A DNA stretch of 59,779 bases from Patescibacteria group bacterium (GCA_028705565.1 JAQWDH010000006.1:1-59779), one strand, 5' to 3'; counted from the first letter of the stretch, positions 30,667 to 58,601 are shown. Notes: generated by a model not told the origin, from the letters alone. Program-made: numbers and translations.

Positions 30667-30670
30667 AATT

Positions 30671-34811: not shown

Positions 34812-34825
34812 GTTGATTAAAAAGT

Positions 34826-36414: not shown

Positions 36415-36415
36415 T

Positions 36416-38071: not shown

Positions 38072-39865
38072 ATGTTATTAAATTACAAAAAAATCATTAG
38101 TTTATATCACTTGTTCAAAAAAGGGTACGGTAAGCATAAAACAAGAATAGCCGTAATGATTTTTTTGAGTTTTATCGGGTCGGTTATGGAGGGGGTTGGT
38201 CTCACTATGATTATCCCTCTTTTATCTTTTGTTAGCAAAGAAGGGTCTTCTAATCAAGGAGAAATATACACTACGCTTTCAAAAGCCTTTTCTTTTTTTG
38301 GAATAAATTTTTCAATTAAAAATTTATTGTTTGTAATTTGTGTTTTGTTTTTAGTTAAGGCAGTAGTACAATTTTGTTCCGGATATGTTAACACGCGTAT
38401 TATAACTAGTTTTGAATTAGACAATAAAAAAGAATTGTTTAAAATGACCATGGAATCAAACTGGCTATATTTGTCTAAACAAAAATTAGGTCATTTAGTT
38501 CAAAATATTACAACTGATGTAGATTATAGTTCGCGACTGTTTAGCCTCATAAGCGGCGTGTCAATAATGATTATCAATTTGTGTGTTTATACTTTTTTAA
38601 TTTTTAGTATTTCAATCCCAGTTTCTTTGTTATTGATTGTTTTAATGATTTTTATTTTCTTTTTTCTCAAACCATTATTTTATAAAAGTAGAATGCTATC
38701 GGCTAAATTAAGTTTATGGTATAAAGAATTGTCTCATTTTGTAAATCAGGTGGTTTTAGGAATGAAATCAATTAAAGCGATGTCGGTTGAAAAAAAGATT
38801 ATAAAAGAAGCGGATCGTTATTTTGATGATTATAGAAACTTAACTTTTAAAATAGCATTGTTTGATAATTTAATGAATTCAATAACACAGCCCATAGGCA
38901 TGCTATTCGTGTTAGCAATTTTTGTTTTTCTGTACAAGTTTGTTGGATTTGATTATGGCTCTTTTACGGTCATAATTTATGCTATTTATAAAGTTTTTAC
39001 TTATTTACAAAATACTCAAGTTCAAATTCAAAGAATGAATACATTTTCTCCTTATTTGGTTAATTTATTAAAATATAAGGAACACACGAGTGTTTTTTTT
39101 GAAAAGAATGAAGGAAAAAAACGATTTAATTTTAAGAATGCTTTAAAATTTCAAGATGTTAAGTTTTCTTACGGTGAAGATAAAATTGTTTTAAACGGGA
39201 TTAATATTATTTTTCGTAAAGGAGAAGTTACTGGTATTTTTGGCCCCTCAGGGTCTGGAAAAACCACGGTGGCGGATTTAATTTTGCGCCTTTACAACCA
39301 AAGCTGCGGGCATATATTATTGGATGAAGAAAATATCGCCGATATTGATATGGAAACATGGAGGAATAATATCGGTTATGTTTCACAGGACTTCTTTTTA
39401 ATAAATGATACAATAGAAAATAATATTAAATTTTATAGAGACGATATTACTCACGATGATATTATAGAAGCGGCAAAGATGTCTAATATTTATGATTTTA
39501 TTGAAGGATTGCCTGATAAATTCGCTACTGTAATAGGAGAAAGAGGGGTTTTGCTTTCCAACGGCCAAAGGCAAAGAATTGTTTTGGCAAGAATTTTATC
39601 TAAAAAGCCAGATATTTTAATACTAGATGAAGCCACAAGCTCTTTGGATAATGAAACCGAAATTTTTATTCAAAAAGCGATTGAGAATTTAAAGGGCAGA
39701 GTAACCATCATAGTAATAGCGCATAGATTGACCACATTGGATAATGCTGATACAATTTACGCGATAAACGAGGGTGTTGTTATTGAGAGTGGAAAACCGA
39801 AAGAGCTTTTAGCAAACAAGGACTCTTATTTCTGTAAAGTTTATAATTTAAAAGGTGTATTATAA
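38072..39865 (+). CDS. ABC exporter, fused permease + ATPase half-transporter (MsbA/PglK-like)
   Basis: The N-terminus has six TM helices. The C-terminus carries Walker A GPSGSGKTT, signature LSNGQRQR and Walker B ILILDEATSSLD. Confidence 0.9.
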   Translation: MLLNYKKIISLYHLFKKGYGKHKTRIAVMIFLSFIGSVMEGVGLTMIIPLLSFVSKEGSSNQGEIYTTLSKAFSFFGINFSIKNLLFVICVLFLVKAVVQFCSGYVNTRIITSFELDNKKELFKMTMESNWLYLSKQKLGHLVQNITTDVDYSSRLFSLISGVSIMIINLCVYTFLIFSISIPVSLLLIVLMIFIFFFLKPLFYKSRMLSAKLSLWYKELSHFVNQVVLGMKSIKAMSVEKKIIKEADRYFDDYRNLTFKIALFDNLMNSITQPIGMLFVLAIFVFLYKFVGFDYGSFTVIIYAIYKVFTYLQNTQVQIQRMNTFSPYLVNLLKYKEHTSVFFEKNEGKKRFNFKNALKFQDVKFSYGEDKIVLNGINIIFRKGEVTGIFGPSGSGKTTVADLILRLYNQSCGHILLDEENIADIDMETWRNNIGYVSQDFFLINDTIENNIKFYRDDITHDDIIEAAKMSNIYDFIEGLPDKFATVIGERGVLLSNGQRQRIVLARILSKKPDILILDEATSSLDNETEIFIQKAIENLKGRVTIIVIAHRLTTLDNADTIYAINEGVVIESGKPKELLANKDSYFCKVYNLKGVL

Positions 39866-39868: not shown

Positions 39869-41308
39869 ATGCGTGTAATGTTAATGGAGTGGGCAAATTC
39901 ACTTCCCGAGTTGGTAGATGTGGCGAGTAAATTAAAAGAAAATGGCCATCAAATTTTGTATTGGGTAAGGAACGACTCTCATTTTAAAGTGGATGAATCA
40001 GCTTTTTTCGGTACGATATTTCATAGTCACATAGAAGCCAGAGAGGGAAAGCCGGCTATTGGATTAAAATTAACCGATTTTGAACCATTGGGATCGGATA
40101 TTATCTTCAATTTTTTTAATGCGGAGTCGGTTTTTATGTCTAATGTGGAGAGATATTATCCAAAAAAAGGGGCACAAGAAAAAAAACAATTATTTTATGA
40201 TCTGCTTAGATATTGGTATGGGTTAACGGTCAAGCTTAAACCAGACGTGGCTATTTTTGAAGAAATTCCACACCACTTACATTCGCACGTTGCCTATTCG
40301 GTGTTAAAATTTTTCAACATAAAAATAATTATTTTAAATTCTATAGGTTTGAATAACAGATTACTCATTACATCGGATATTAAATTTAACAGCCAAAAAC
40401 TTCGGTTAAGAATGAAAGAAAATTCTGACAAAGATTTTAATTTGGGAGATCTTTCCCCAGAGATAAAAATAAATATTGATAATGGGACTAACTATACAAA
40501 ATTGCCAGTTCAAACGATAGCTTTATATAATGAGCAAAAAATAAAAAATAAAAATAACAATAATGTCCTTGTCGCTAAATTGATTTTTTGGTTAAAAATA
40601 TTTATCAGTTTTCGTATATTTAGAATTACTTATAATTTTGTAAAAAATCGAATAGGCGGCAACGCCAAAAAAGAATACCTGAAAGCGCAAAAATTACCAG
40701 ATTTTAATTTAAAATATATTTATGTGCCATTGCATTATCAACCAGAGGCGTCTACGAATATTCTTGGTGGAATGTTTGTAAATCAGATTAATCTTATAGA
40801 AATTCTCTCCGCTTCGTTGCCGGAAGGATGGAATATTTATGTTAAAGAACATCCAATACAGTTTTATGTTAATGGAATTGGGTATAATTCATATAGGTTC
40901 AAAGGATTTTATAATAGAATTTCCAATATAAAAGGAGTGAAAATTATTCCTATGGATACTGATACATTCAAATTAATTGAAGAATGCAAGGCGGTAGCCA
41001 CTGTTACTGGCACTGCTGCTTGGGAATCCGTTCTTCGATTAAAACCGGCTTTGATATTTGGCGATAATTGGTTTCAAGATTGTCCGGGGATATTCAAAGT
41101 AAACAATGTGGAAAAATGCAAGGCGGCATTGAATTTTATTAAAAACGGAAGTTTTAAGACAACGAAGCAGGATATAATTCGTTTTTTATTTTCTGTTGAA
41201 GAAGCAACCATATTTGGAAATTTTTCTTTTATTAAATCAGAAGATACGGTGGATTCCGCAACGAATGTGGATAATATTTATAAATCAATTATTGAATCAA
41301 TGAAATAA
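39869..41308 (+). CDS. Uncharacterised 479-aa protein, possible GT-B transferase with sialyl/Kdo-transferase-like HP motif
   Basis: ...YIYVPLHYQPEASTN..., ...NIYVKEHPIQF... (His-Pro at 40850-40855) and ...AVATVTGTAAWESVLRLKPALIFG... resemble the acceptor/donor-half layout of Capsule_synth (KpsC/KpsS)-type and sialyltransferase-type GT-B enzymes. This is recognition by eye only. Confidence 0.35.
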   Translation: MRVMLMEWANSLPELVDVASKLKENGHQILYWVRNDSHFKVDESAFFGTIFHSHIEAREGKPAIGLKLTDFEPLGSDIIFNFFNAESVFMSNVERYYPKKGAQEKKQLFYDLLRYWYGLTVKLKPDVAIFEEIPHHLHSHVAYSVLKFFNIKIIILNSIGLNNRLLITSDIKFNSQKLRLRMKENSDKDFNLGDLSPEIKINIDNGTNYTKLPVQTIALYNEQKIKNKNNNNVLVAKLIFWLKIFISFRIFRITYNFVKNRIGGNAKKEYLKAQKLPDFNLKYIYVPLHYQPEASTNILGGMFVNQINLIEILSASLPEGWNIYVKEHPIQFYVNGIGYNSYRFKGFYNRISNIKGVKIIPMDTDTFKLIEECKAVATVTGTAAWESVLRLKPALIFGDNWFQDCPGIFKVNNVEKCKAALNFIKNGSFKTTKQDIIRFLFSVEEATIFGNFSFIKSEDTVDSATNVDNIYKSIIESMK

Positions 41309-41318: not shown

Positions 41319-42311
41319 ATGTCTTTAGGTTTTTTAAAAGGTTCTTCCATTTTGATCACCGGAGGAACCGGTTCTTTTGGAAAACAATGCATTAAAGCTC
41401 TGCTTCAAAAAACAGAAGCTCGGCGAATAATTATTTTTAGTCGAGATGAATATAAACAGGTAAAAATGACCGCGGAATTTCCTGATACGGAAGGACGGTT
41501 AAGATTTTTTATTGGAGATGTTCGTGATAAAGAAAGACTAGAGAGGGCTTTCAACGATGTTGACTATGTTATACACGCCGCCGCGTTGAAGCATGTTCCG
41601 ATTTTGGAATACAATCCTTTTGAAGCGATAAAAACTAATATTTTAGGATCTAAAAATGTTATTGATGCGGCGATTGACTGTCGCGTTAAGAAAGTTATTT
41701 TAGTTTCTACTGATAAAGCCGCTAACCCGGCAAATTTATATGGCGCGACTAAATTATGCGCCGAGAGACTGATGATTAGCAGTAATGTTTATGGCGCCGA
41801 AAAAACTAAATTCTCCGTAGCTCGTTACGGCAATGTTTTTGGTAGCCGAGGCAGTTTAGTAGAACTAATTAAAAAACAAATGTCTAAAGGAGAGGTTGCT
41901 TTAACTCATGAAGATATGACCAGGTTTTGGATTACTTTAGACCAAGGAGTAAATCTTGTTTTGTCGGTTTTGGAAAAAATGCAGGGAGGAGAAATTTTTG
42001 TTCCTAAAATACCAAGTATGAAGATTAAGGATTTAATTCAAATTTTAGCGCCAGGATGCAAATTAAAAATTATCGGCATTCGACCAGGAGAAAAATTACA
42101 CGAAGTTTTAATAACACAGGAGGAAGCAAGGCACACGAAAGACGCGGATGATTACTACGTTATTTTACCGGAAATTAAAGGGTGGTCTATTAATAGTAGT
42201 TATGCCGAAAATAAAAATTTTTCAGATTTATATTTTAGTAGCGATAAAAATCATTTTTGGCTTGACCGAGAAGCCATAATTAAACTTCTATCCACTGTTT
42301 CTAATGAATAA
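41319..42311 (+). CDS. pseB: UDP-N-acetylglucosamine 4,6-dehydratase (inverting), PseB/FlaA1 type
   Basis: Near-colinear with H. pylori FlaA1: ILITGGTGSFGK, RFFIGDVRD.ERL, IHAAALKHVP..EYNP.E.IKTNI.G, STDKAANP.NLYGATKLC, RYGNV.GSRGS, MTRFWITLD.GV, GGEIFVPKIPSMK, IIGIRPGEKLHEV. Confidence 0.9.
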   Translation: MSLGFLKGSSILITGGTGSFGKQCIKALLQKTEARRIIIFSRDEYKQVKMTAEFPDTEGRLRFFIGDVRDKERLERAFNDVDYVIHAAALKHVPILEYNPFEAIKTNILGSKNVIDAAIDCRVKKVILVSTDKAANPANLYGATKLCAERLMISSNVYGAEKTKFSVARYGNVFGSRGSLVELIKKQMSKGEVALTHEDMTRFWITLDQGVNLVLSVLEKMQGGEIFVPKIPSMKIKDLIQILAPGCKLKIIGIRPGEKLHEVLITQEEARHTKDADDYYVILPEIKGWSINSSYAENKNFSDLYFSSDKNHFWLDREAIIKLLSTVSNE

Positions 42312-42325
42312 TAGTAATTTGAAAT

Positions 42326-43480
42326 ATGAAAAAACCATCCATTATACCTTATGGACACCAAACAATAAGAAATGACGATATAGCAGAGGTGGTAAAAGTA
42401 TTAAAGTCAAACTATTTGACACAGGGTCCAAAAGTCAAAGAATTTGAGCAGAATCTTGCTGATTATTGCGGAAGAAAATATGCGGTAGTTTTTTCTTCTG
42501 GCACAGCGGCTTTGGAGGCGGCTTATTATGCTGCCGGTATTGGCGCTGGAGACGAGATAATAACGACGCCGCTTACTTTTGCCGCAACTTCAAATATGAT
42601 ATTGGCTCGCGGGGCGAAACCTGTTTTTGTTGATATTGATTCTTCCACCGGTAATCTTGACCCGAAAGAGTTTGAAAAGAAAATTAATAAAAAGACAAAA
42701 TCGCTAGTTGTGGTTGATTATGCCGGGATGCCGGCAGATCTAAATTTGTTTAAAGAAATTTGCAACAAAAATAACCTCGTTTTTATTGAGGATTCATCTC
42801 ATGCTCTTGGCGCCTCATTTGAAGGTAAAAAAGTTGGCGCTATTGCAGACATGACTATATTTAGTTTTCATCCAGTTAAATCCATCACCACAGGAGAGGG
42901 AGGAGCGGTTATCACTGGCAAGAAAGATTATTACGAAAGGCTCGTCTTATTTAGAAGCCACGGTATTATTAAAGATAAGAAAAAATTTTTTAGTAAGAGC
43001 CCGGCGGAGTGGTATCACGAAATGCAAGATATTGGATTTAATTTTCGTCTTTCTGATATATGCGCCGCGCTAGGAGTAAGCCAAATGAGAAAACTTGATA
43101 AATTTATCGCAAAAAGAAAGTTGATTGCCAAGCGTTACAAAAAAGAGCTCAGTGGTCTTAAAAATTTTATATTGCCAAAAGATATATCTGGGCGTGAATC
43201 CAGCTGGCACTTATTCGTTTTACGGATTATCCCATTAAAAAAGCATCTTCGTAATTTTGTCTTTACTAAGTTGCAAAACAAAGGAATAGGCGTCCAAGTT
43301 CATTATTTACCGGTTTATTTACACCCATATTATCAAATGTTAGGATATAAAAAGAATCTTTGCCCAAAAGCCGAGTTTTTTGCAGAATCGGAAATTTCTA
43401 TACCTATTTTTCCAACCCTTTCTTTTCGAAATCAGTCTCTTATAATTAAAACATTAAAAGAAATTGATAAAATGTTGTGA
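42326..43480 (+). CDS. pseC: DegT/DnrJ/EryC1-family PLP aminotransferase, PseC-like (UDP-4-amino-4,6-dideoxy-hexose forming)
   Basis: IPYGHQTI..DDI..V..VLKSNYLTQGPKV, IITTPLTFAATSN, DSSHALG, FSFHPVKSITTGEGGAV (PLP lysine), FRSHG, GFNFRLSDI.AALG.SQ. Confidence 0.8.
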   Translation: MKKPSIIPYGHQTIRNDDIAEVVKVLKSNYLTQGPKVKEFEQNLADYCGRKYAVVFSSGTAALEAAYYAAGIGAGDEIITTPLTFAATSNMILARGAKPVFVDIDSSTGNLDPKEFEKKINKKTKSLVVVDYAGMPADLNLFKEICNKNNLVFIEDSSHALGASFEGKKVGAIADMTIFSFHPVKSITTGEGGAVITGKKDYYERLVLFRSHGIIKDKKKFFSKSPAEWYHEMQDIGFNFRLSDICAALGVSQMRKLDKFIAKRKLIAKRYKKELSGLKNFILPKDISGRESSWHLFVLRIIPLKKHLRNFVFTKLQNKGIGVQVHYLPVYLHPYYQMLGYKKNLCPKAEFFAESEISIPIFPTLSFRNQSLIIKTLKEIDKML

Positions 43481-43514
43481 AAATTATTTTTTGAAAAAGA
43501 TAAAAATAATATTT

Positions 43515-44828
43515 ATGAAAAAAGGGCAATCTCTTTGGAAAAAGGCTAAAAAAATTATTCCAGGCGGCAATCAACTTCTTTCCAAGAGGTCGGAAATGTT
43601 TTTGCCAAATGGATGGCCATCTTATTATTCTAAGGCAAAAGGAGTTTATGTTTGGGATCTTGATGGAAATAAATATATAGACATGTCAATTATGGGTGTT
43701 GGAAGTTCTCTTTTAGGGTATTCCGACGCAGATGTAAACAGCGCGGTTAAGAAGGCTGTAGACAAAGGAGTTGTTTCAACTTTAAACGCGCCAGAAGAAG
43801 TTGAACTAGCGGAGATATTATGCAAAATTCATCCTTGGGCAAAGATGGTTAGATTCGCTCGTTGTGGCGGGGAAGCTATGGCAATAGCAATTAGAATTGC
43901 CAGAGCTTACAGTGGAAAAGATAAAATAGCCTTTTGCGGCTATCATGGGTGGTCGGATTGGTATTTAGCGGCCAATCTTTCTGATGATAAGAATCTGGAC
44001 GGCCACCTTCTACCCGGGTTAGAACCGCACGGTGTACCCCGTGTATTAAAGGGAACGCTTTTACCGTTTCATTACAATAAAATCTCTGAACTTGAAGATA
44101 TAGTAAAGAAAAATGGTAAAAAATTAGGTGTTATTGTGCTTGAACCAATGAAGGGCGAATATCCTAAAGATAATTTTTTAAAAAAAGTGCGGGTAATTGC
44201 TGATAGAATTGGCGCAGTCCTTGTTTTTGATGAAGTAAGTAGCGGCTGGAAGATGACTTTTGGAGGGTCGCACCTCCTTTATGGCGTAAATCCAGATATT
44301 GCTGTTTTGGCCAAGGCCATAGGCAATGGTTTTGCAATGGCGGCGATTATTGGTCGGCGCGAAGTAATGCAGGCCGCGCAATCAACATTTATTTCAAGCA
44401 CCAGCTGGACAGAGCGCGTGGGGTTAGTAGCCGCTTTAGCGACACTTAAAAAAATGAAACGATTAAAAGTAGCCGAAAAAATTCAAATTATTGGCAACAA
44501 GGTTAAAAAAATTTGGGTTAAAAAAGCTGAAAAACATGGGTTATTAATTACTACGGGCGGTTTGCCTCCTTTTAGTAATTTTATTTTTAATTACAGTAAT
44601 AAACACCAGGCACTCAAGACGCTTTTTATTCAAGAAATGCTTGAAAGGGGTTTTCTCGCTTCCAACCAGTTTTTTCCAAGTTATATGCACACTGACGTAA
44701 TTTTAAAAAAATATGAAAAAGCGGTAGATGATGTTTTTGAGATTTTGAAAGAAGCTATTGACACCAACACGGTTGAAAAGCGTTTAAAAGGACAGGTTGC
44801 TCATACCGGGTTTGCCCGGCTTAATTAA
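43515..44828 (+). CDS. Class III PLP aminotransferase, glutamate-1-semialdehyde 2,1-aminomutase-like
   Basis: ...AKKIIPGGNQLLSKR..., ...VVSTLNAPEEVELAE..., ...VFDEVSSGW..., ...DIAVLAKAIGNGFAMAAIIGRREVM... (Lys in AKAIGNG). The ATG at 43515 is used; the track start at 43464 is a TTG overlapping pseC. Confidence 0.8.
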   Translation: MKKGQSLWKKAKKIIPGGNQLLSKRSEMFLPNGWPSYYSKAKGVYVWDLDGNKYIDMSIMGVGSSLLGYSDADVNSAVKKAVDKGVVSTLNAPEEVELAEILCKIHPWAKMVRFARCGGEAMAIAIRIARAYSGKDKIAFCGYHGWSDWYLAANLSDDKNLDGHLLPGLEPHGVPRVLKGTLLPFHYNKISELEDIVKKNGKKLGVIVLEPMKGEYPKDNFLKKVRVIADRIGAVLVFDEVSSGWKMTFGGSHLLYGVNPDIAVLAKAIGNGFAMAAIIGRREVMQAAQSTFISSTSWTERVGLVAALATLKKMKRLKVAEKIQIIGNKVKKIWVKKAEKHGLLITTGGLPPFSNFIFNYSNKHQALKTLFIQEMLERGFLASNQFFPSYMHTDVILKKYEKAVDDVFEILKEAIDTNTVEKRLKGQVAHTGFARLN

Positions 44829-44875
44829 ACAATAATGTTGTTATGAAAGTAAAATAGTGTGTTTGAGTTAAAAAA

Positions 44876-45811
44876 ATGTTTTATATGAGTTTACAAAAAA
44901 GCAATTTTGTATTAGGCACAGTTCAACTTGGAATGAAGTATGGTCTTAATAATAGGCATAATCAGCCAACCCTAGACGAATCGTTCTCTATTTTAGATGC
45001 GGCTTTTGCTGCCGGCATCAACACATTTGATACTGCGTACGCTTATGGCACTGCGGAAGATATACTTGGAGCATGGATTCAAGATAGATCGTTAGCTGAT
45101 AAAATTCGAATCATTTCTAAAATGAAACCGCATGTTTTGAATGATTATCCAGATGGCGCAAAAGCCATTGATGTTATTAAGACAGAATTAAAAAAAACGT
45201 TGAATCGTCTTAATCTTAATTCTATTGATGGTTATTTATTTCATTCGCCTCATTATATTTATTTGCGTCATATGGTGGATGGAATGAAGAAAATTCGCGA
45301 TATTGGCGTAGTAAAAAATATTGGCGTTTCAATTTATAACGAAGCAGAGGCTTTGCAAGCGGTAGAAATGGGAATTGATTATGTGCAAGTGCCTTATAAT
45401 ATTTTTGATCAACGTTTGGATCGGACAGTTTTTTTTGAATTAGCAAAAAAAAATAAAGTAACCGTGTTTGCGCGCAGTCCTTTTTTACAAGGGTTGCTAT
45501 TGATGCGCCCTGAACGCATGCCGAAAAACCTTTTTTATATGCGTCCGCATATGGAACAGTTTATTGAAATTGTTAAAAAATATCATTTGTCGCCAGTGGA
45601 GGCCTCTCTTATATTTGTAAAAGCGCATTGCAGAGCAGATTATATCGTATTTGGCATTGATACACTTTCCCAGTTGAAAAATAATATTGATATAATAAAT
45701 AATTTTTTACCAAATACAGTGAAAGGATTAGTGGAAGAGATAGAAAATTGTTTTAAAGATTTCAATCAAGGAGCTGTTAACCCGAGTCTGTGGAGTAAAA
45801 TAAAATTATGA
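44876..45811 (+). CDS. Aldo/keto reductase family oxidoreductase
   Basis: ...LGTVQLGMKYGLNN..., ...GINTFDTAYAYGTAEDILG..., ...VKNIGVSIYN..., ...VQVPYNIFDQR.... An alternative ATG at 44885 is possible. Confidence 0.8.
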   Translation: MFYMSLQKSNFVLGTVQLGMKYGLNNRHNQPTLDESFSILDAAFAAGINTFDTAYAYGTAEDILGAWIQDRSLADKIRIISKMKPHVLNDYPDGAKAIDVIKTELKKTLNRLNLNSIDGYLFHSPHYIYLRHMVDGMKKIRDIGVVKNIGVSIYNEAEALQAVEMGIDYVQVPYNIFDQRLDRTVFFELAKKNKVTVFARSPFLQGLLLMRPERMPKNLFYMRPHMEQFIEIVKKYHLSPVEASLIFVKAHCRADYIVFGIDTLSQLKNNIDIINNFLPNTVKGLVEEIENCFKDFNQGAVNPSLWSKIKL

Positions 45812-47289
45812 TAGTCTGTATTATACAAGCACGAATGGGGTCAACGCGTTTGCCTGGTAAGGTTTTAAAATTTATTTTAGAAAAGCCGATGCTTTATAGG
45901 CAAATTGAGCGTGTGAAACGCGCGAACACCATTGATAAAATTATTATCGCTACGACAATAAACAAGGAAGATGACATTGTCGCGTCTACGGCTCGTGAAG
46001 CTGGGGTTGATTGCTTTCGAGGTAGTGAAGCTGATGTTCTGGACCGTTATTATCATGCGGCAAAATTGGCTAAAGCCGACATTATTGTTCGTTTGACAGG
46101 AGACTGTCCGCTCTCCGACCCGGATGTTATTGATGAAACTGTTGGATATTTTTTAAAATATGCAAAAGACTTAGATTATGCTTCAAAACCGGTTAATTAT
46201 CCTGAAGGACTTGACGTGGAGGTTTTTACTTTTACCGCGCTTGAACGTTCTTGGAAAGATGGAAAAAAAATATCAGAGCGAGAACATGTAACACCTTTTA
46301 TATATACACATCCGGAAATTTTTAGAATTGGGGTGGCGCAACAAAGCGGTGGAAAAGATTATTCAAAGATGCACTGGTCAGTTGACACTGCGGAAGATTT
46401 TGTTTTTGTTACAAATATATTTGAAGCGTTGTACCGTAAAAATCCATTTTTTTCTAAGGATGATATAATTAAATTTTTAAAAAATCATCCAGAATTACTA
46501 TTTATTAATAAAGGAGGGACTGGATACGAGGGGTATAAAAAATCTTTAAAGGAAGATAAGGTTTTTCAGAATAAAAGTTTTATTTATCAAAAAATTATTG
46601 GTTTTATTCCCGAGGTGATTTTTATTATTTCCGGCGGGACTGTAAAAGATGTTAAAAAAAATGGTTTGATAACTTACCGTTCAACAAGAAAAAACGAGGG
46701 TGATTTTTTTGGCACACTTTGGGGTGAAGCGCGAGTTATCGCAACGGCGGAACTTGCGTTGTTTTTTCCAAAAACGGAGATAAAAATTGTGGCCACAAAT
46801 TTTTCTATAAATAACGAACCAACGCAAGCAGAAATCATACGGAATGAACTTGAAAAACTTTCTGTTTCTCGCAGTCGTATTACTGTGTTAGGGAAAAAAT
46901 CAAAAAATACAGCTTCCCAAATATGTGAGTGTTTAAAAATTATCTACAATGAAAAATGGCGCAAGGCAGTGATAGTTACAAATGTATATCATATAGATAG
47001 AGTTTCTGCGATATATTCTCATTTGGATAGAATTTCAACCATAAGCAGAGAAGCGAAAAAAAATGCTAAATTTTTATCTTCCGAGGCTTCTATTTTTTTT
47101 ATTGGGGCTGAATTGATATTACCTTTTCGTGACAAAAAATATAAAACAATAATTAAACGAGTACAGGCAACGCACGCTTACAAAAGGAGAATTAAAAACG
47201 AAAAGCAGGGTGTGGCAATGATTTTGAATGGAGAATACGGTAAATTGTTCATTAAGAAAGATAAAAAAAAGGAAAGAAAACTCCAGTGA
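45808..47289 (+). CDS. Fusion protein: SpsF/PseF-like cytidylyltransferase domain + C-terminal DUF218 (YdcF/ElyC-like) domain
   Basis: The N-terminus MIVCIIQARMGSTRLPGKVLKFILEKPMLYRQIERV...IVRLTGDCPLSDP is the acylneuraminate/SpsF cytidylyltransferase signature. The C-terminal ~230 aa (...VIFIISGG..., ...NTASQICECLKII..KWRKAVIVTNVYHIDRV...) resemble DUF218. Confidence 0.75.
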   Translation: MIVCIIQARMGSTRLPGKVLKFILEKPMLYRQIERVKRANTIDKIIIATTINKEDDIVASTAREAGVDCFRGSEADVLDRYYHAAKLAKADIIVRLTGDCPLSDPDVIDETVGYFLKYAKDLDYASKPVNYPEGLDVEVFTFTALERSWKDGKKISEREHVTPFIYTHPEIFRIGVAQQSGGKDYSKMHWSVDTAEDFVFVTNIFEALYRKNPFFSKDDIIKFLKNHPELLFINKGGTGYEGYKKSLKEDKVFQNKSFIYQKIIGFIPEVIFIISGGTVKDVKKNGLITYRSTRKNEGDFFGTLWGEARVIATAELALFFPKTEIKIVATNFSINNEPTQAEIIRNELEKLSVSRSRITVLGKKSKNTASQICECLKIIYNEKWRKAVIVTNVYHIDRVSAIYSHLDRISTISREAKKNAKFLSSEASIFFIGAELILPFRDKKYKTIIKRVQATHAYKRRIKNEKQGVAMILNGEYGKLFIKKDKKKERKLQ

Positions 47290-47300
47290 ATTCATGGTAG

Positions 47301-47330
47301 TTTTTTTGCCTTGCATATTTTTTTGCCTTG
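47301..47330 (+). repeat. 13-nt direct repeat TTTTTTTGCCTTG x2 in the intergenic region upstream of the NeuB-family gene
   Basis: 47301-47313 and 47318-47330 are identical on direct reading. Confidence 0.7.
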
Positions 47331-47339
47331 TATTATTAT
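47311..47339 (+). promoter_or_regulatory. Candidate internal sigma70-type promoter
   Basis: TTGCAT (47311-47316), a 17-nt spacer, then TATTAT (47334-47339). It lies only ~10 nt from the ATG at 47350, so the transcript would be nearly leaderless. Confidence 0.3.
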
Positions 47340-47349
47340 AAAGTAATAT

Positions 47350-48480
47350 ATGCGAAAAGAACGAAAAAATTTTTTTAAAAGTTTGGCAAAGCATCTGACC
47401 TACGAAACAGTAAAGGAAGTCAAAATAGGTAGTAGGTTTATAGGTGAGAATCACCCGGTTTTTATTATTGCCGAAGTAAGCGCAAATCATCGTGGTAAAA
47501 TTAATAATGCTTTGCGAGCGATAGAGTTTGCAGCTGAAGCTGGGGCGGATGCGATAAAATTTCAGCATTTGACTCACGATAAAATTGCCGCCGATACATT
47601 TGTTTATGATAACAACGAAGACAAGCCAATAGGAACAATGTCTGGCTTATATAAAACCGCCGAGTTGCCTTATGAGTGGACGAATACTTTAGTCGCGCAC
47701 GCTAAAAAAAATAATATTACTTTTTTATCAACCCCATTTGATAAGGGCGCAGTGGATTTACTTGATAGGGCGGGGGTGCCAGCATTTAAGATTGCTTCCT
47801 ACGAATTAACCGACGATATATTTCTTCGTTATGTTGCTAAAAAAGGTAAACCAATTATTATTTCAACCGGAATGGCTTATCTGGAAGAGGTGGCGCATGC
47901 AGTACGAATAATACAAGAGGAAGGTAATAATCAAATTATCATTTTGCATTGTATTTCAATCTACCCGCCGAAAAGTTTTAAAGATTTAAATTTGCGCGCC
48001 ATTAAAACACTGCAAGAATCTTTTCAGCTTCCAGTTGGTTATTCTGACCATTCTACGCCGCCTTATTTATCGGCGCCTATTACAGCGGTTGCTTTAGGCG
48101 CCTGTATTATTGAAAAGCATCTGACTGACAATCGCGATGGCGGTAGTAACGATGATCGTAATTCATTGACTTTTGGCGAGTTCAAGCGTATGGTAGAGGA
48201 AATTCGTCGCACCGAGCAATCTCTTTCAGAGTGCGGCATTAAGCAGCCGGTAGTTTATTCTAAACACATAGGAGATGAAATAGCTGACCGTTGGGCTCGT
48301 CGTTCGCTTTATGCTGCCAAAGATATTCCAGCAGGCGCAATTATAACTGAAAATGCGATAATAACTCTTAGGCCGTTTGGTGGCATTGATCCAAAGGACT
48401 TTCAAATTATAAAAGGAAGAAAAACACAGCGCGCAATCAATGCTCGTTCACCTATTACTTTTGATGATTTTTTTACATAA
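47350..48480 (+). CDS. NeuB-family nonulosonic acid synthase (N-acetylneuraminate/pseudaminate/legionaminate synthase type) with C-terminal SAF domain
   Basis: IGENHPVFIIAEVSANHRGKINNALRAIEFAAEAGADAIKFQ, PAFKIASYELTD, KPIIISTGMA, ILHCISIYP, VGYSDHS, IIEKHLT. The C-terminus ...LYAAKDIPAGAIITENAIITLRP... is SAF-like. Confidence 0.85.
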   Translation: MRKERKNFFKSLAKHLTYETVKEVKIGSRFIGENHPVFIIAEVSANHRGKINNALRAIEFAAEAGADAIKFQHLTHDKIAADTFVYDNNEDKPIGTMSGLYKTAELPYEWTNTLVAHAKKNNITFLSTPFDKGAVDLLDRAGVPAFKIASYELTDDIFLRYVAKKGKPIIISTGMAYLEEVAHAVRIIQEEGNNQIIILHCISIYPPKSFKDLNLRAIKTLQESFQLPVGYSDHSTPPYLSAPITAVALGACIIEKHLTDNRDGGSNDDRNSLTFGEFKRMVEEIRRTEQSLSECGIKQPVVYSKHIGDEIADRWARRSLYAAKDIPAGAIITENAIITLRPFGGIDPKDFQIIKGRKTQRAINARSPITFDDFFT

Positions 48481-48541
48481 TCATAAATTAGATGTATTTT
48501 TTATAAAATTAATTAAATTAATTTAATTTAAATAAGAAAAT

Positions 48542-49768
48542 ATGAAATATTGCAAAAAATGTGTCAATCCGGAAAATGTTTATGAAATGAATGATTTTGA
48601 TGAAAATGGGGTATGCGGTATGTGCAGAAATTGGAAGAATTATGATGAAGTTTTCGCAGCCGAACAAAAAAATAAAGAAAAAAGATTCATTGAAATTTTA
48701 GAAAGATACCGCAGCAAAGATGGCAGTAATTATGATATGATAATTCCCGTTAGCGGCGGAAAGGATAGTTTATATCAGGTTCATTTATTGAAAAAAGTGT
48801 ATGGTTTTAATCCTCTTTTGGTTACTTTTAATCATACATTTAATACAAAAACGGGCATTTACAACATGACCAATATGGTGGAAAAACTAGGCGTGGATCA
48901 TATTAGATTTACTCCTAATCCACAGCTTATCTCTAAAACTTCAAGGCTTTCCTTAAAGAAATTTGGTGATATTTGCTGGCATTGCCATTGTGGTATTTTT
49001 ACCTTTCCTTTAAGAATAGCCGTGGCTTTTAAAATTCCTTTGCTTATTTCCGAACACAAATATTATGGTTTGCTTTCCGCGGATGAAGAAAATAAATTTC
49101 AACCCAATCTTAAAGACAGATTATTTGCTGTCCGCGCCGAGGCTAAAGATATGGTTGATAAGGAATTAGGAATTGAATTAAAAGATCTCGTTCAATGGCA
49201 AATGCCTTCGCAAGAAGAAATTGATAAAGTTGGTGTCCGCGGTTTGAGTATCGCCGAATATATAAAATGGGATTCTAAGGTGATAACGGAATTTCTTATT
49301 AAAGAATATGGATTTAAAACTAAAGAACACGATAGAACTTATGATTGTTACGCCAATGCCGAATGCCATCATTGCAGCGGTACGCATGATTATTTAAGAT
49401 ATTTGAAATCAGGCTATGGCAGAGTAACCGATGATGTAGGTATAGATATAAGAAAAGGATTAATGACCAGGGAAGAAGGTATAAAAATGGTTGAAAAATT
49501 TGATGGTGTTAAGCCAAAAGATTTAGACATATATTTAAAGCGGGTAAACATGACTGAAGAAGAATTTATGAAATATATGGAAGATAAGCGCGAAGAATCC
49601 GTATGGTTCAAAGACAGCGATGGTCAGTGGCAAATTAAAGATTCAGTTTCTAGACACAAGAATGATCAAGGTGTGGAAAAAGTAATATCACCCTTGAGTA
49701 GAGTGGACAGTTATAAAAGAATCAGCAACCCGCTTGATGACGAAATAGAAAAACATATTATAATGTAA
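48542..49768 (+). CDS. N-acetyl sugar amidotransferase (PseA/WbpG/WbuX family PP-loop ATPase)
   Basis: N-terminal zinc ribbon MKYCKKCVNPEN...DENGVCGMCRNW, then PP-loop IIPVSGGKDSLYQVHLLKKVYGFNPLLVTF. This matches the family linked to acetamidino formation on amino sugars. Confidence 0.8.
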   Translation: MKYCKKCVNPENVYEMNDFDENGVCGMCRNWKNYDEVFAAEQKNKEKRFIEILERYRSKDGSNYDMIIPVSGGKDSLYQVHLLKKVYGFNPLLVTFNHTFNTKTGIYNMTNMVEKLGVDHIRFTPNPQLISKTSRLSLKKFGDICWHCHCGIFTFPLRIAVAFKIPLLISEHKYYGLLSADEENKFQPNLKDRLFAVRAEAKDMVDKELGIELKDLVQWQMPSQEEIDKVGVRGLSIAEYIKWDSKVITEFLIKEYGFKTKEHDRTYDCYANAECHHCSGTHDYLRYLKSGYGRVTDDVGIDIRKGLMTREEGIKMVEKFDGVKPKDLDIYLKRVNMTEEEFMKYMEDKREESVWFKDSDGQWQIKDSVSRHKNDQGVEKVISPLSRVDSYKRISNPLDDEIEKHIIM

Positions 49769-49895: not shown

Positions 49896-50885
49896 ATGAA
49901 AGAAACTGACATTAGAGATGATAAATACGCTGAAAAAATCAAATATTACGCCACTGAAGATAAAAAAGTACTAATGAAACACGAGAAAGATTTTGTTAAA
50001 GTCTCTTGTCCGGCTTGCGGAAAATTAGACGCAAATTTTGCCTTTATAAAATTAAGAATTCAGTATTTAGAATGTAATAACTGTAGAACTATTTATGCCA
50101 GTCCGCGCCCGACACAGGAGATATTAAAAGAGTATTACCAAAAATCAAAAAATTATCAATTTTGGAATAAATACGTTTTTCCAACTTCTGAAAAAGCGCG
50201 GCGGGAAAAAATATTCAAACCTCGAGTTGATTTGTTAATAAAATATTGCAAGCTTTCTGGTATTAAATCAGGAACACTTATTGAAGTGGGGGCGGGTTTT
50301 GGGACTTTTTGCGAAGAGGTTAAAAGTAGAAATTTTTTTAAGCGAGTAATAGGAATTGAGCCAATTCCTGATTTGGCTGAAAGTTGTCGCAAAAAAGGTA
50401 TTGAAATCATTGAAAAACCAGTTGAGGAGGTGAAGTTAAAAAGTATCAAAGCTGATGTCATTGCGTCTTTTGAAACATTAGAACATCTTTTTAACCCCAG
50501 GGATTTTATCTTATCTTGCAGCAAGCTTTTAAAAAAGGGAGGATTGCTTGTTTTGTCTTGTCCAAATATGTTTGGATTTGACACTTTAGTCCTGAGGGAA
50601 ATGTCAAAAAGCGTGGGAGGGGAGCATATTAATATGTTTAATCCAGAATCAATAAAGATATTAATGCAGGATTGCGGTTTGGTAGCGCTTGATGTAAAAA
50701 CTCCGGGAAAATTAGACGCAGAACTGGTACACAAGGCCATCATAATAGATAATTTTAATATGGATGATCAATATTTTTTAAAGCATCTTTTAGTTGATCG
50801 TTGGGATGATATGGGAGATAAATTTCAGAAATTTTTATCAGACAATTTGTTATCTTCCCACATGTTCTCGGTGGCAAAAAAATAA
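49896..50885 (+). CDS. Class I SAM-dependent methyltransferase with N-terminal Cys4 zinc-ribbon
   Basis: CPACGK...x...CNNCRTIYASPRP, then motif I LIEVGAGFGTF and ...VIASFETLEHLFNPRDFI..LLKKGGLLVLSCPN.... Confidence 0.75.
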   Translation: MKETDIRDDKYAEKIKYYATEDKKVLMKHEKDFVKVSCPACGKLDANFAFIKLRIQYLECNNCRTIYASPRPTQEILKEYYQKSKNYQFWNKYVFPTSEKARREKIFKPRVDLLIKYCKLSGIKSGTLIEVGAGFGTFCEEVKSRNFFKRVIGIEPIPDLAESCRKKGIEIIEKPVEEVKLKSIKADVIASFETLEHLFNPRDFILSCSKLLKKGGLLVLSCPNMFGFDTLVLREMSKSVGGEHINMFNPESIKILMQDCGLVALDVKTPGKLDAELVHKAIIIDNFNMDDQYFLKHLLVDRWDDMGDKFQKFLSDNLLSSHMFSVAKK

Positions 50886-50888: not shown

Positions 50889-51818
50889 ATGATTAAATTA
50901 TTATTTTTAGGGTGTAATTTTGACCAACTGCCATATTTAAAAATTGCTAAACAGAAGGGCTATTATATTGTTGGCACAGATTTAAACAACCATGCCCCTG
51001 GAATTAAATATTTAGATAAATACTATCGGGTTGGTTATGAAGACGCGAAAGGGTTGGTTGATTTTGGCAAAAAAGAAAAATTTTCATATGCTGATAAAGT
51101 TTTTACAGCTTCCAGCCAGTTTGCTTACATCGGAGCCAGCGCTTTCGCAAAAAAATTTGGAATTAAATTTATCAGCCCAAAGACAGTTGATTATTGTTTA
51201 AACAAGATTAAACTTTATCAATTATTTAAAAAGCAAAACTTGCAAGTTCCGGAATGGGCAATAGTTAAGAGGCAAAAAGAGCTGAAAAAATATGTTAAAA
51301 AGTGGGGTGTTTGTTATCTTAAATCTGATTATGGCAAGTCTCCACATTACTGTTATAGAATTGCAGGCGGTCATTTTCCCACATTGCCCTTAAAACGCGA
51401 TCGTTATTTTAGAAAATATTTTATTATTCAAAAAGAAATTATAGGTAATCAGTTCAGAATTAATTGGATAAACGGACAATTGATTTGTTTTTTTAAAGTT
51501 TCCGATACCATATCCGTGCCCGCTCATTTTATCGATTTTGGCGATAGAATATGTAAAAACATTAGAAGTTTAATTTTTAAATTAGGCTTACAGAATCATT
51601 TGGTTAAATTTGATATTATTTATAATAAGCAAGGGTGTTATTTTATAGACATTGGTTTAGAACCGCCGATGAGACTAAAATTATATTTGGAATATTTAGG
51701 TTATAATTTTGAAAAAATATATTTGGAACAAGTTGTAGAAAATTTTTACAATTTTCCACTGTCGGATAATCTTCCAAATGATTTAATAATAAAGAATAAA
51801 ATTGTTAAAAAATTATAA
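50889..51818 (+). CDS. ATP-grasp domain protein (putative carboxylate-amine ligase)
   Basis: Pre-ATP-grasp Rossmann-like N-terminus (IKLLFLGCNFDQLPYLKIAKQKGYYIVGTD), and central ...WGVCYLKSDYGKSP... and ...FIIQKEIIGNQFRINW... strands typical of ATP-grasp. Confidence 0.55.
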   Translation: MIKLLFLGCNFDQLPYLKIAKQKGYYIVGTDLNNHAPGIKYLDKYYRVGYEDAKGLVDFGKKEKFSYADKVFTASSQFAYIGASAFAKKFGIKFISPKTVDYCLNKIKLYQLFKKQNLQVPEWAIVKRQKELKKYVKKWGVCYLKSDYGKSPHYCYRIAGGHFPTLPLKRDRYFRKYFIIQKEIIGNQFRINWINGQLICFFKVSDTISVPAHFIDFGDRICKNIRSLIFKLGLQNHLVKFDIIYNKQGCYFIDIGLEPPMRLKLYLEYLGYNFEKIYLEQVVENFYNFPLSDNLPNDLIIKNKIVKKL

Positions 51819-51829
51819 AAAATTTTAGA

Positions 51830-52876
51830 ATGAATTTAATTATTATAAATTCTGGTCAAAAATTTTTTTTGAAGAATTGTCTAAACAGTTTAATAAATAC
51901 CACTAACTTGGTAAATTTTGATATTCATGTAATAAAAGAAAGAGAATACAGAGAAGTAACTTTTAATACCATTTTAGAAGGATATACTAGTCAAGATATT
52001 TTAATTTTCGGTGATGATATTGTTTTTACAAAAGGTTGGTTTGAATTTTTGATGGCAAATAAAAAAAATGGTGACATTATTGGTTTTTCCATGCTTTATC
52101 CAGGGACGGATAAAGTTCAAGATACTGGTTATGATTTAGTAAAAATTGATAACGAAATTATTTTAAAACCTAAAAACAGGGGAAAAAAGAAAGAAAAAAT
52201 AAAAAAGTTTAATTTTAGAGAATGCGATTCTTCAAGCGGCTGCGCATTGTTTATAAAAAAGAATGTGGCAGAAAAGATTCGTTCCATGCCAGTTAACGGT
52301 ATGAACCGCTGGGGAGAGTTTTTATACATGAATGAAGCTAAAAAGAAAGGATTTAAGGTCATAGTTCTTGGCCATTATTTATACCATCATGGTAAGAGTA
52401 CTAAAATTAACCCGAATAAATTATTGAGCTCGGAAAGTTATATGTTGGAACAAAAAATGTGGAGGAAAATTGTAAAACAATATATTAACAAAGAACAAAT
52501 CAAAATTCAATTAAAGAAAGTTTTGTCAAAAAAAATCAGGAGCATACTATTATCAAAAAAGAAAATTTTATTTTATGGAGCAGGCACAGTATCGGAATTT
52601 ATTTTAAAAGAATTAAAAAGCGAGTTAGATTTAAGGTTTGTTGATATTTGTTCCGGGTTGTCTGAAGAAAAAGAAAAGATTTTTTGCGGAAAAAAAATCA
52701 GTTTCTATAAAAATGTTGATTTTGGCAATTATGATATAGTAATAGTTAGCGTTTTACAAAAAGAAAAAGTAATTTTTGATTTAATCAAAAATTTTATTGA
52801 TAAAAAAAAGTTATATTATGTGGCTCAAGAAACAATAGGTTGTTTAATAAAATTTGGAATAAAACAATATGCATAA
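51830..52876 (+). CDS. Hypothetical protein, weak GT2-like N-terminal domain plus C-terminal Rossmann-like segment
   Basis: MNLIIINSGQKFFLKNCLNSLINTT..., ...ILIFGDDIVFTKGWF... (DXD-like) and ...GCALFIKKNV.... The C-terminus reads ...KKILFYGAGTVSEFILKEL.... Assignment is tentative. Confidence 0.35.
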   Translation: MNLIIINSGQKFFLKNCLNSLINTTNLVNFDIHVIKEREYREVTFNTILEGYTSQDILIFGDDIVFTKGWFEFLMANKKNGDIIGFSMLYPGTDKVQDTGYDLVKIDNEIILKPKNRGKKKEKIKKFNFRECDSSSGCALFIKKNVAEKIRSMPVNGMNRWGEFLYMNEAKKKGFKVIVLGHYLYHHGKSTKINPNKLLSSESYMLEQKMWRKIVKQYINKEQIKIQLKKVLSKKIRSILLSKKKILFYGAGTVSEFILKELKSELDLRFVDICSGLSEEKEKIFCGKKISFYKNVDFGNYDIVIVSVLQKEKVIFDLIKNFIDKKKLYYVAQETIGCLIKFGIKQYA

Positions 52877-58600: not shown

Positions 58601-58601
58601 T

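Follow-up and report, generated by a model that had tools for sequence, protein, structure and literature searches.

The canonical route to CMP-pseudaminic acid (CMP-Pse) in Campylobacter jejuni and Helicobacter pylori proceeds through PseB-PseC-PseH-PseG-PseI-PseF. A 59,779-nucleotide stretch of DNA from a Patescibacteria group bacterium (59.8 kb; hereafter the window) shares with this route true PseB and PseC equivalogs, a NeuB-family synthase and a CTP_transf_3 enzyme, as well as a PseA-type amidotransferase like that of C. jejuni. However, PseH and PseG are missing, the synthase does not reach the PseI cut-off, the SpsF-type enzyme is fused to a DUF218 domain, and a class-III aminotransferase (AT3), an aldo/keto reductase (AKR), ATP-grasp ligases and methyltransferases have been added. 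How would such a locus complete a nonulosonic acid? Its seven core genes, all on the + strand, span 41319-49768, with the same ORF boundaries as in an earlier, sequence-only reading of this DNA. Functional assignments are based throughout on sequence and gene context.

32121-32897: KdsB (304.5 bits against a cut-off of 255), the sole other CTP_transf_3 gene in the window
38072-39865, + strand: ABC exporter/flippase of the MsbA/PglK type (Pfam ABC_membrane and ABC_tran)
39869-41308, + strand: Capsule_synth (KpsS/KpsC-like) protein (PF05159, 33 bits against a cut-off of 20)
41319-42311, + strand: PseB, inverting UDP-GlcNAc 4,6-dehydratase (TIGR03589, 454.6 bits against a cut-off of 407.75; Polysacc_synt_2, 336 bits)
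42326-43480, + strand: PseC, UDP-4-amino-4,6-dideoxy-beta-L-AltNAc aminotransferase (TIGR03588, 470.6 against a cut-off of 423.5)
43464-44828, + strand: AT3, class-III (omega-type) aminotransferase, GSA-aminomutase-like (PF00202, Aminotran_3, 146 bits)
44876-45811, + strand: AKR (PF00248, Aldo_ket_red, 133 bits)
45808-47289, + strand: SpsF-DUF218 fusion, 493 aa (CTP_transf_3 at aa 3-198, DUF218 at aa 307-411)
45808-46518, + strand: SpsF-type cytidylyltransferase domain, aa 1-237 of the fusion (PF02348, 122.7 bits against 22.6)
46519-47289, + strand: DUF218c domain (ElyC/SanA/YdcF family), aa 238-493 of the fusion (PF02698, 40.3 bits against 27.6)
47350-48480, + strand: NeuB-family nonulosonate synthase, NeuB and SAF domains (below the PseI and NeuB_NnaB cut-offs)
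48542-49768, + strand: WbuX/PseA/WbpG-type N-acetyl sugar amidotransferase (TIGR03573, 311.4 against a cut-off of 203.2)
49896-50885, + strand: first SAM methyltransferase (Pfam), ortholog of the post-NeuB methyltransferase in window-type clusters
50889-51818, + strand: weak ATP-grasp-like protein (domain scans)
51830-52876, + strand: protein without a family
52869-53846, + strand: ATP-grasp protein (domain scans)
53860-54789, + strand: second SAM methyltransferase (Pfam)
54858-56591, + strand: acetolactate-synthase-like ThDP enzyme (domain scans)
56625-57380, + strand: FabG-like SDR (domain scans)
57389-58600, + strand: L-amino-acid-ligase (LAL)-type ATP-grasp enzyme (ATP-grasp_4 and LAL_C2 domains)

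Both PseB and PseC exceed their equivalog cut-offs, which upholds the sequence-only reading in its assignment of a Pse-type nonulosonic acid module and in its description of PseB as a very strong match. By family membership, the two enzymes would convert UDP-GlcNAc to UDP-4-amino-4,6-dideoxy-beta-L-AltNAc, and the NeuB-family synthase would condense a hexose with PEP. A legionaminic acid pathway was rejected (LegB TIGR04180, 66 bits against 475; LegC family, 235.6 against 420), and Pfam scans detected no Epimerase_2 domain (NeuC-type hydrolysing 2-epimerase) in the window. Among all window ORFs of at least 100 aa, Pfam scans also revealed neither a GNAT, hexapeptide or formyl transferase nor a Glyco_tran_28_C domain. 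HMMs for PseG and for PseH-like GNATs, built from the sequences of related clusters, gave zero matches at E<=1e-3 among the six-frame stop-to-stop ORFs of at least 50 aa in the window; the sequences used for PseG are true members of that family, with 225-249 bits on TIGR03590 (cut-off 153.55). The lack of PseH and PseG, already noticed at the locus, extends across the entire window, which holds PseB and PseC of the canonical set and no PseH, PseG, PseI equivalog or PseF equivalog. Given that our view is limited to 59.8 kb, pseG or pseH could sit elsewhere in the genome.

The N-terminal, SpsF-type domain of the fusion scores 31 bits on the PseF model TIGR03584 (cut-off 205.7). It matches 6oew with E = 1e-35 by sequence and with a TMt of 0.92 for the AF2 model, followed by KdsB, NeuA and PseF structures, and it conserves the QARxGSTRLPGK and GDCP motifs. 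A Bacillus subtilis spsF mutant makes Leg, which is not transferred (PMC7439481). The gene at 32121-32897 was rejected as PseF, being KdsB, and the window contains no PseF candidate other than the SpsF domain. On the grounds of fold, motifs, the B. subtilis genetics and the lack of another candidate, we predict this domain to be a CMP-nonulosonate synthetase, the equivalent of PseF, which would activate the finished nonulosonic acid with CTP.

The surrounding enzymes belong to a widespread arrangement. The B. subtilis sps operon (PMC7439481), the Vibrio B9-25K2 nab cluster (PMC7371886) and loci L012-L090 combine an SpsF-type enzyme with an AKR or GFO/IDH/MocA oxidoreductase and a class-III aminotransferase, as does the window, and the SpsF-type Pse/Leg clusters have the gene order PseB-PseC-AKR-SpsF-AT3-...-NeuB in common with it. 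The recurrence of SpsF, AKR, GSA-aminotransferase and NeuB-like genes, mentioned in the sequence-only reading, was recovered as PseB-PseC-AKR/GFO-SpsF-AT3-NeuB in ~80 genome loci. AT3 and SpsF occur together in most loci and are fused in P0080 and others; SpsF-AKR and SpsF-GFO fusions also exist, and a GFO/IDH/MocA oxidoreductase takes the AKR position in L001, L007, L091 and L092. The best NCBIfam matches of AT3 are GSA-aminomutase models, and its assignment as HemL was rejected (TIGR00713, 202.9 against 527.3; PRK06209, 256 against 486).

These genes had been proposed to replace PseH and PseG jointly, AT3 and AKR acting together with the SpsF-DUF218 fusion to yield an extra amino group or a reduced side chain. 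They do lie between PseC and NeuB, and pairs of an oxidoreductase and an omega-transaminase put amino groups onto sugars. Moreover, the PDB relatives of AT3 include aminoglycoside C-6' aminotransferases, and the Rosetta-stone fusions link both enzymes to SpsF. However, a true PseG stands beside AT3, the reductase and SpsF in 29 of 43 complete loci, usually fused or adjacent to a PseH-like GNAT, while L004 lacks AT3 and AKR and is likewise devoid of PseG and GNAT. AT3 and AKR therefore cannot be the substitutes, and the enzymes that coexist with PseG are accessories or, for SpsF, the PseF equivalent; joint replacement is very improbable. AT3 and AKR would instead form an accessory oxidoreductase/transaminase pair, probably acting on the free or CMP-linked nonulosonic acid, and an extra amino group on the product is possible.

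The fusion itself divides in this respect: its SpsF half co-occurs with PseG, whereas its DUF218 half, of a domain type that we call DUF218c, tracks the loss of PseG. Most SpsF-type Pse/Leg clusters retain PseG, a PseH-like GNAT that is often joined to PseG in one protein, and a PseI with a high score, whereas the window has DUF218 and no GNAT. Among the 43 complete loci, which are non-redundant, DUF218c occurs in six and never together with any of the 29 PseG genes (Fisher p = 5e-4, for loci that are phylogenetically non-independent). A second, independent scan, seeded by the standalone DUF218c motif alone, yielded 35 further metagenome loci, 28 of them with Pse-type genes; PseG had no match in any of the 35, and none was found across the ~48 DUF218c-bearing loci. 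The standalone domain is typically encoded between SpsF-AT3 and NeuB, in many cases with NeuB as the very next gene downstream. In the Saccharibacteria locus L027, a standalone DUF218 (Pfam, 58.1 bits) directly precedes a true PseI (416 bits), and a GNAT is present too. Relatives carry SpsF-DUF218-GNAT triple fusions, and the DUF218-GNAT domain order in P0044 and P0117 parallels the common PseG-GNAT fusion. Given that DUF218c and GNAT co-occur in some loci, PseH is not what DUF218c replaces. From the genomic association and the missing step, we propose that DUF218c is a non-homologous substitute for the UDP-sugar hydrolase PseG. The C-terminal domain of the fusion would strip UDP from the sugar, the reaction of PseG and of the hydrolysing 2-epimerases NeuC/LegG, in which a free 6-deoxy-hexosamine is released from its UDP carrier before the condensation with PEP.

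All taxon-labelled DUF218c loci belong to CPR, and groundwater was the source of several of the metagenome loci; owing to this phylogenetic clustering, the exclusivity with PseG may partly mirror lineage. Eight of the 43 complete loci, the compact CPR (Patescibacteria) clusters L077 and L045 among them, have neither PseG nor DUF218c, indicating that the hydrolase can be encoded elsewhere or otherwise supplied. Together with the limited view of the genome and the canonical PseB and PseC, these loci are consistent with an ordinary Pse5Ac7Ac (or Pse5Am7Ac) pathway, with pseG and pseH elsewhere in the genome and an unrelated role for DUF218. We consider this quite unlikely in view of the lack of PseG in all ~48 DUF218c-bearing loci, the fusion of DUF218c to SpsF or GNAT or its place immediately upstream of NeuB, and two features described below, the low-scoring NeuB and the gain of a ligase and a methyltransferase in GNAT-less loci.

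The proposed substitution would be one of unrelated proteins. PseG has a two-domain, GT28-like GT-B fold, whereas DUF218c is a single alpha/beta domain of ~250 aa, and no homology between them was found (hhalign probability 1.6%). The sequence-only reading had listed the DUF218 half without giving it a role; a 97% identical protein is named 'ElyC/SanA/YdcF family protein' by NCBI. No PDB relative of DUF218c can be detected by sequence, and NCBIfam has no family for it. The model of the domain (pLDDT 87.8) likewise lacks a significant neighbour among PDB structures, with weak Foldseek matches to macrodomains and LmbE-type deacetylases (E ~0.01), and the fold therefore lends no support to a mechanism. 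Membership of Pfam DUF218 is common to the window domain and E. coli ElyC, SanA and YdcF. For the E. coli proteins, neither a biochemical activity nor a connection with nonulosonic acids is known to us. A sugar-diphosphate connects the two groups: Und-PP-linked ECA and lipid II intermediates in E. coli and, as proposed here, a UDP-sugar in the window. Unlike the E. coli proteins, DUF218c is cytoplasmic; within nonulosonic acid clusters it occurs as a standalone protein or as a fusion with a cytidylyltransferase. SanA requires a Thr/His/Glu triad (PMC12176290). Judged solely from motif order and spacing, its residues T125/H149/E182 may correspond to T368, H395 and E435 of the window protein, the first two within S-x-N-T and Y-H-x-x-R motifs and the last farther downstream. 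In 7 of 29 relatives, Gln replaces the triad His. Residue 362 is Gly only in the window protein and in relatives 95-98% identical to it, and Glu in 39/40 and 28/29 family members, suggesting that the window copy may be altered or inactive.

Another possibility would be that DUF218 acts in the pathway with a different job, such as de-N-acetylation or de-O-acylation, CMP-sugar hydrolysis or proofreading, or regulatory nucleotide binding, and that UDP is removed by another protein, for instance the SpsF-type GT-A-like domain, Capsule_synth or NeuB. The uninformative fold with its weak macrodomain and deacetylase matches, the missing Glu362 and the existence of compact clusters without any hydrolase would all fit such a role. 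Nevertheless, it appears unlikely, as PseG is the sole canonical step consistently missing alongside DUF218c. Moreover, PIG-L deacetylases are separate genes in other SpsF loci, and DUF218c has invariant Arg and Glu residues instead of invariant His/Asp metal ligands. As for other proteins that might remove UDP, Capsule_synth is absent from L001, L091 and L092, and SpsF coexists with PseG elsewhere.

With DUF218c as the proposed stand-in for PseG, the second missing enzyme concerns the nature of the product. Lacking PseH, the pathway would leave the 4-amino group (N7 of the product) unacetylated, and this group would be free or acylated by the downstream LAL-type ligase. Among >120 loci, LAL homologs were found only in the GNAT-less DUF218 loci L001, L004, L091, L092 and L123, and the GNAT-less clusters carry this ligase and a methyltransferase instead. 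On the basis of this co-occurrence, which covers only ~6 loci, we propose that the LAL-type ligase is an N-acylating substitute for PseH. NeuB is followed by a methyltransferase in all window-type clusters, and the first methyltransferase of the window matches those after NeuB in L004, L091 and L092. The trio of TPP enzyme, SDR and ATP-grasp protein is also found downstream of NeuB in L001; the ThDP enzyme and the SDR may, speculatively, supply a hydroxy-acid acyl donor. The N7 substituent would be shaped by the conserved methyltransferase and here also by the ThDP enzyme and the SDR. The three ORFs at 50889-53846 probably encode tailoring enzymes, and AG2 shows weak similarity to the ATP-grasp proteins found in L001 and L092. 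The WbuX/PseA-type amidotransferase, well above its cut-off, is predicted to convert an acetamido to an acetamidino group, which lends plausibility to the acetamidino substituent suggested earlier.

The synthase differs in parallel. Its score on the PseI model TIGR03586 is 321.5 (cut-off 340.25), compared with 485-509 bits for the PseI enzymes of ordinary SpsF-type, PseG-bearing clusters, and nearly ties with that on NeuB_NnaB (291 against 399.65); among PDB entries it matches the PseI structure 8h2c best (8e-64). Orthologs with 64-69% identity occur solely in GNAT-less DUF218 loci, to which the divergence of NeuB is likewise restricted. The enzyme belongs to a divergent clade between PseI and NeuB, and its divergence would mirror an altered substrate. 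By these scores the NeuB homolog is not firmly a PseI; the combination that the sequence-only reading took to indicate an ordinary pathway, PseH and PseG together with a firmly placed PseI, was not found within the locus.

Immediately upstream of PseB, the Capsule_synth protein and the ABC exporter would serve glycan transfer and export. Capsule_synth orthologs with 30-38% identity lie upstream of PseB in L004, L005, L007 and L011, where homologs of the exporter adjoin the Capsule_synth gene and PseB. From this context we infer that the Capsule_synth protein is a candidate CMP-nonulosonate transferase.

To conclude, we favour, at somewhat better than even chances, a variant CMP-pseudaminic-acid-type pathway in which DUF218c stands in for PseG and SpsF for PseF, N7 is altered, AT3 and AKR are accessory, and Capsule_synth and the ABC exporter handle glycan transfer and export. 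The pathway probably yields a Pse-type nonulosonic acid bearing N-substituents other than acetyl. A broader and rather doubtful reading takes DUF218 as an unrecognised class of glycosyl-diphosphate (NDP-sugar) hydrolases, a subfamily of which would have displaced PseG in Patescibacteria and other lineages; a dedicated DUF218 subfamily comprises 370 clusters at 50% identity (E<=1e-30). Window-type clusters would then make a new Pse-type acid with a methylated acyl or aminoacyl group, installed by an ATP-grasp enzyme, on N7 in place of acetyl. If true, this would by extension mean that the enterobacterial envelope factors ElyC and SanA work by cleaving sugar-diphosphate-undecaprenol intermediates. 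The presence of DUF218 in the slot of PseG would provide the first testable biochemical role for a widespread domain of unknown function.

The window holds a single long glycan locus of co-directional genes with a GC content of 0.29–0.39. The boundaries that a sequence-only reading had drawn around one module, 41319–49768 on the + strand, agree exactly with seven ORFs, which profile searches assigned as follows:

41319–42311, + strand: PseB (TIGR03589, 454.6 bits; cut-off 407.75)
42326–43480, + strand: PseC (TIGR03588, 470.6 bits; cut-off 423.5)
43464–44828, + strand: class-III aminotransferase (AT3); top models are glutamate-1-semialdehyde aminomutases, with scores far under the cut-offs
44876–45811, + strand: aldo/keto reductase (AKR)
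45808–47289, + strand: 493-aa protein joining a CTP_transf_3 (SpsF-type) cytidylyltransferase to a DUF218 domain
47350–48480, + strand: NeuB/SAF synthase (PseI model 321.5 bits, cut-off 340.25; NeuB model 291)
48542–49768, + strand: WbuX/PseA-type amidotransferase (TIGR03573, 311.4 bits; cut-off 203.2)

The same reading had reported that PseH, the GNAT N-acetyltransferase, and PseG, the GT28-like UDP-sugar hydrolase, are missing. Pfam scans of every other window ORF of at least 100 aa detected no GNAT, hexapeptide, formyl transferase or GT28-like protein, and HMMs for PseG and PseH-like proteins, built from genuine sequences of related clusters, matched none of the six-frame window ORFs of at least 50 aa. 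The second cytidylyltransferase of the window (32121–32897) was considered as a PseF and rejected, since it scores at KdsB level (304.5 bits versus 255) as a homolog of CMP-Kdo synthetase. The absence of both enzymes from the window is therefore confirmed; the locus feature is real, and is a variant of the Pse pathway, not a separate kind of system. The genome around this KdsB homolog is probably from Patescibacteria, which are generally regarded as lacking LPS. The KdsB homolog is followed, at 32925–36414, by a GT2–Zn-alcohol-dehydrogenase fusion, a cyclase-family protein and a D-2-hydroxyacid dehydrogenase. The window amidotransferase stands without HisH/HisF-like partners, like C. jejuni PseA; in L011, the closest genome locus (Paceibacterota, 5579–8188), such partner genes precede the WbuX-type amidotransferase.

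The initial interpretation also held that AT3, AKR and the SpsF-type fusion occupy the place of PseH and PseG. Comparator loci were collected by a contig scan of one genome per species with patterns lying entirely within the SpsF domain, which returned 80 loci from many phyla, none of them with the full-length fusion; an exact search of the contig index for the fusion protein gave no match. Mapping the window proteins onto these loci revealed that the arrangement PseB-PseC-AKR (or a GFO/IDH/MocA oxidoreductase, GFO)-SpsF-AT3-...-NeuB is very widespread. When the unassigned ORFs of these clusters were grouped by clustering, PseG was the commonest family, occurring in 41 loci and often as a PseG-GNAT fusion, so that AT3, AKR and SpsF normally adjoin PseG and a PseH-like GNAT and do not stand in for them. 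With 225–249 bits, the PseG representatives clear the 153.55-bit cut-off of the PseG equivalog model, the GNAT halves of the fusions matched PseH best, and the NeuB genes of the PseG-bearing loci are unambiguous PseI (485–509 bits).

Because the SpsF-type enzyme is the sole cytidylyltransferase in most of these clusters, and because legionaminic acid is still produced by a spsF mutant of B. subtilis that is unable to transfer it (PMC7439481), the SpsF domain is best read as a predicted PseF equivalent. Among homologs of the fusion, SpsF-type domains are joined to AKR, GFO/IDH/MocA, class-III aminotransferase, NeuB, GNAT, DegT and other partners, and these fusions suggest that the substrate of the AT3/oxidoreductase pair may be the nonulosonic acid, either free or linked to CMP. 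The SpsF/AKR association was already remarked upon in a Vibrio cluster and left without explanation (PMC7371886); our literature search found no connection between glutamate-1-semialdehyde-type aminotransferases and pseudaminic acid. The SpsF proteins of about 515 aa, P0026–P0037, were considered as SpsF-PseG fusions and rejected, as their C-terminal halves do not match the PseG HMM. These halves have no Pfam domain and no GNAT or DUF218c HMM match either, and represent another uncharacterised fusion partner.

The DUF218 subfamily of the fusion's C-terminal half (DUF218c; residues 238–493) shows a different relationship to PseG. The SpsF-DUF218 architecture is kept in all close relatives of the fusion. 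A 97% identical protein from a Patescibacteria MAG is annotated 'ElyC/SanA/YdcF family protein', and a relative occurs in Candidatus Taylorbacteria; the best genome match of the SpsF half is from Paceibacterota. Five related loci (L001, L004, L007, L091 and L092) have the order PseB-PseC-(AT3-GFO)-SpsF/DUF218-NeuB and no GT28 protein. In a sixth and more distant locus, L005, a fused GNAT comes after the DUF218 domain, the same order as in the common PseG-GNAT fusion. Among 43 non-redundant complete loci, 29 carry only PseG, six only DUF218c, none both and eight neither; the exclusivity (Fisher p = 5e-4) is indicative only, as the 43 loci are not phylogenetically independent.

The DUF218-half profile retrieved 370 clusters (50% identity) at E<=1e-30, most of them standalone proteins of 200–260 aa; a standalone DUF218c, P0131, lies on a 1.5-kb contig that gives no gene context. 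As an independent test, metagenome contigs were scanned with a motif derived solely from standalone DUF218c members. Pse-type genes were present in 28 of the 35 loci obtained, usually with DUF218c directly between SpsF-AT3 and NeuB and in many cases with a GNAT, while PseG matched in none of the 35. L027, from a Saccharibacteria genome, has a standalone, Pfam-confirmed DUF218 directly upstream of a true PseI, with a GNAT also present. Profile-profile comparison detected no homology between DUF218c and PseG (probability 1.6%). The simplest reading of these gene contexts is that DUF218c is a non-orthologous displacement of PseG and would supply the release of the hexose from UDP. Within the literature collection searched, no paper connected DUF218 with nonulosonic or pseudaminic acid, or pseudaminic acid with CPR (= Patescibacteria) bacteria.

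The exclusivity could partly be a lineage effect: the DUF218c loci with a taxon label belong to CPR lineages, and several of the metagenome loci come from groundwater samples. Moreover, a UDP-sugar hydrolase can be encoded outside the locus or supplied otherwise, since eight complete loci, including compact CPR clusters such as L077, have neither candidate. Capsule_synth was considered as a PseG substitute and rejected, as L001, L091 and L092 lack it. In the PseG-less Pse-type clusters L045 (12144–13532, between the class-III aminotransferase and GNAT-NeuB) and L027 (11809–13113), a protein of roughly 460 aa shows only a faint Glyphos_transf (GT-B) signal; it may be another replacement for PseG, or a PseG that has diverged strongly. 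The DUF218c subfamily may also be used outside Pse clusters, because, within 10 kb of the GNAT-DUF218c fusion that L116 and L124 encode (~9881–10582), no further gene for nonulosonic acids was detected.

Averaged over an AlphaFold model of the entire fusion, pLDDT is 88.6. The N-terminal half of this model aligns structurally with a Leptospira cytidylyltransferase, 6oew (TMt 0.92), followed by KdsB, NeuA and PseF structures, and this half dominates the whole-model Foldseek matches. Modelled separately, DUF218c is a three-layer alpha/beta domain (pLDDT 87.8, pTM 0.86). It has no PDB fold match below E = 0.007, and its profile has no match among PDB sequences; the structure therefore yields no mechanism. 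Invariant Arg and Glu residues mark the family, together with the S-x-N-T and Y-H-x-x-R motifs of DUF218. By motif order, the essential T125, H149 and E182 of SanA (PMC12176290) would correspond to T368, H395 and E435 of the fusion. At position 362 (codon 46891–46893) the fusion has a lineage-specific Gly, versus Glu in 39/40 and 28/29 relatives, and a one-residue insertion lies just upstream ('ITVLGKKSKNT'). The standalone DUF218c copies L027 16759–17340 and L128 9938–10585 are examples with Glu at this position. The Gly362 feature is real, because three independent assemblies, 95–98% identical, carry it, and the DUF218c domain of this lineage may function in another way or be inactive.

The lack of PseH divides the DUF218c loci. 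A GNAT is present in L005/L006, L007, L027 and many of L094–L128, and the synthases of the two such loci scored, L007 and L027, are true PseI (410–416 bits). The window, L001, L004, L091, L092 and L123 have no GNAT, as judged for L091 and L092 from Pfam context alone. The NeuB proteins of these GNAT-less loci are 64–69% identical to the window NeuB, and those scored (window, L001, L004) reach 311–321 bits on the PseI model, nearly tied with the NeuB model. Among more than 120 loci, homologs of a LAL-type ATP-grasp ligase (57389–58600) are carried by the GNAT-less ones and by no others. A methyltransferase comes after NeuB in the window, L001, L004, L091 and L092, and a ThDP enzyme and an SDR are common to the window and L001. 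Thus, the amino group introduced by PseC would not be acetylated; it may stay free or receive an acyl group from the ATP-grasp ligase, and methylation may follow. Such an altered substrate would suit the divergent NeuB synthase. Nonulosonic acids carrying free amines or amino-acyl substituents are already known. We predict from this gene content that the window-type sugar is a non-acetylated, Pse-type sugar of ultrasmall bacteria. The SugarBase preprint mentions an example of a free-amine nonulosonic acid.

The locus is also unusually rich in radical tailoring enzymes: among its GT4/GT2 glycosyltransferases and SAM methyltransferases are scattered radical SAM enzymes, seven of them cobalamin-binding or related and one of the SPASM type (8285–9772, 11409–12761, 14315–15712, 15745–17214, 18357–19400, 25681–27096, 30656–32095 and 58590–59660). 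The reaction might be a C-methylation of sugars; C10 ulosonic acids that lack an explanation have recently been described from Magnetospirillum in a preprint. Two proteins recur beside DUF218-type Pse modules: a PglK/MsbA-like ABC exporter, and a Wzy_C (O-antigen ligase/PglL-type) protein that ends in TPR repeats (window 1199–3265, L004 19874–end, L007 11940–14129 and L092 18688–20880). The Wzy_C-TPR protein may serve protein glycosylation as an O-oligosaccharyltransferase, and not be an LPS ligase. Two window ORFs, 36386–38044 (552 aa) and 51830–52876 (348 aa), match no Pfam or NCBIfam family, and none of the more than 120 related loci encodes a homolog of either.

Flagella, pili, capsules and S-layers carry pseudaminic acids as decorations. 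The Pse pathway enzymes are targets for drugs and glyco-engineering, and PseG has counted as an indispensable step. We know of almost nothing on the surface chemistry of ultrasmall Patescibacteria. The widespread DUF218 domain occurs in ElyC, SanA, YdcF and YgjQ, proteins that have clear envelope phenotypes and, to our knowledge, no known reaction. If the non-homologous replacement is true, surveys keyed on PseG and PseH overlook a whole set of producers, including Patescibacteria. The main interest lies in the PseG-analogue role proposed for a DUF218 subfamily, a function concrete enough to be tested: a defined soluble substrate, an enzymatically makeable UDP-sugar, together with the prediction of UDP release would open the DUF218 reaction to direct assay. 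The predicted non-acetylated Pse-type sugar comes second; the GNAT-less, ATP-grasp-bearing subtype points to a nonulosonic acid derivative not yet described.
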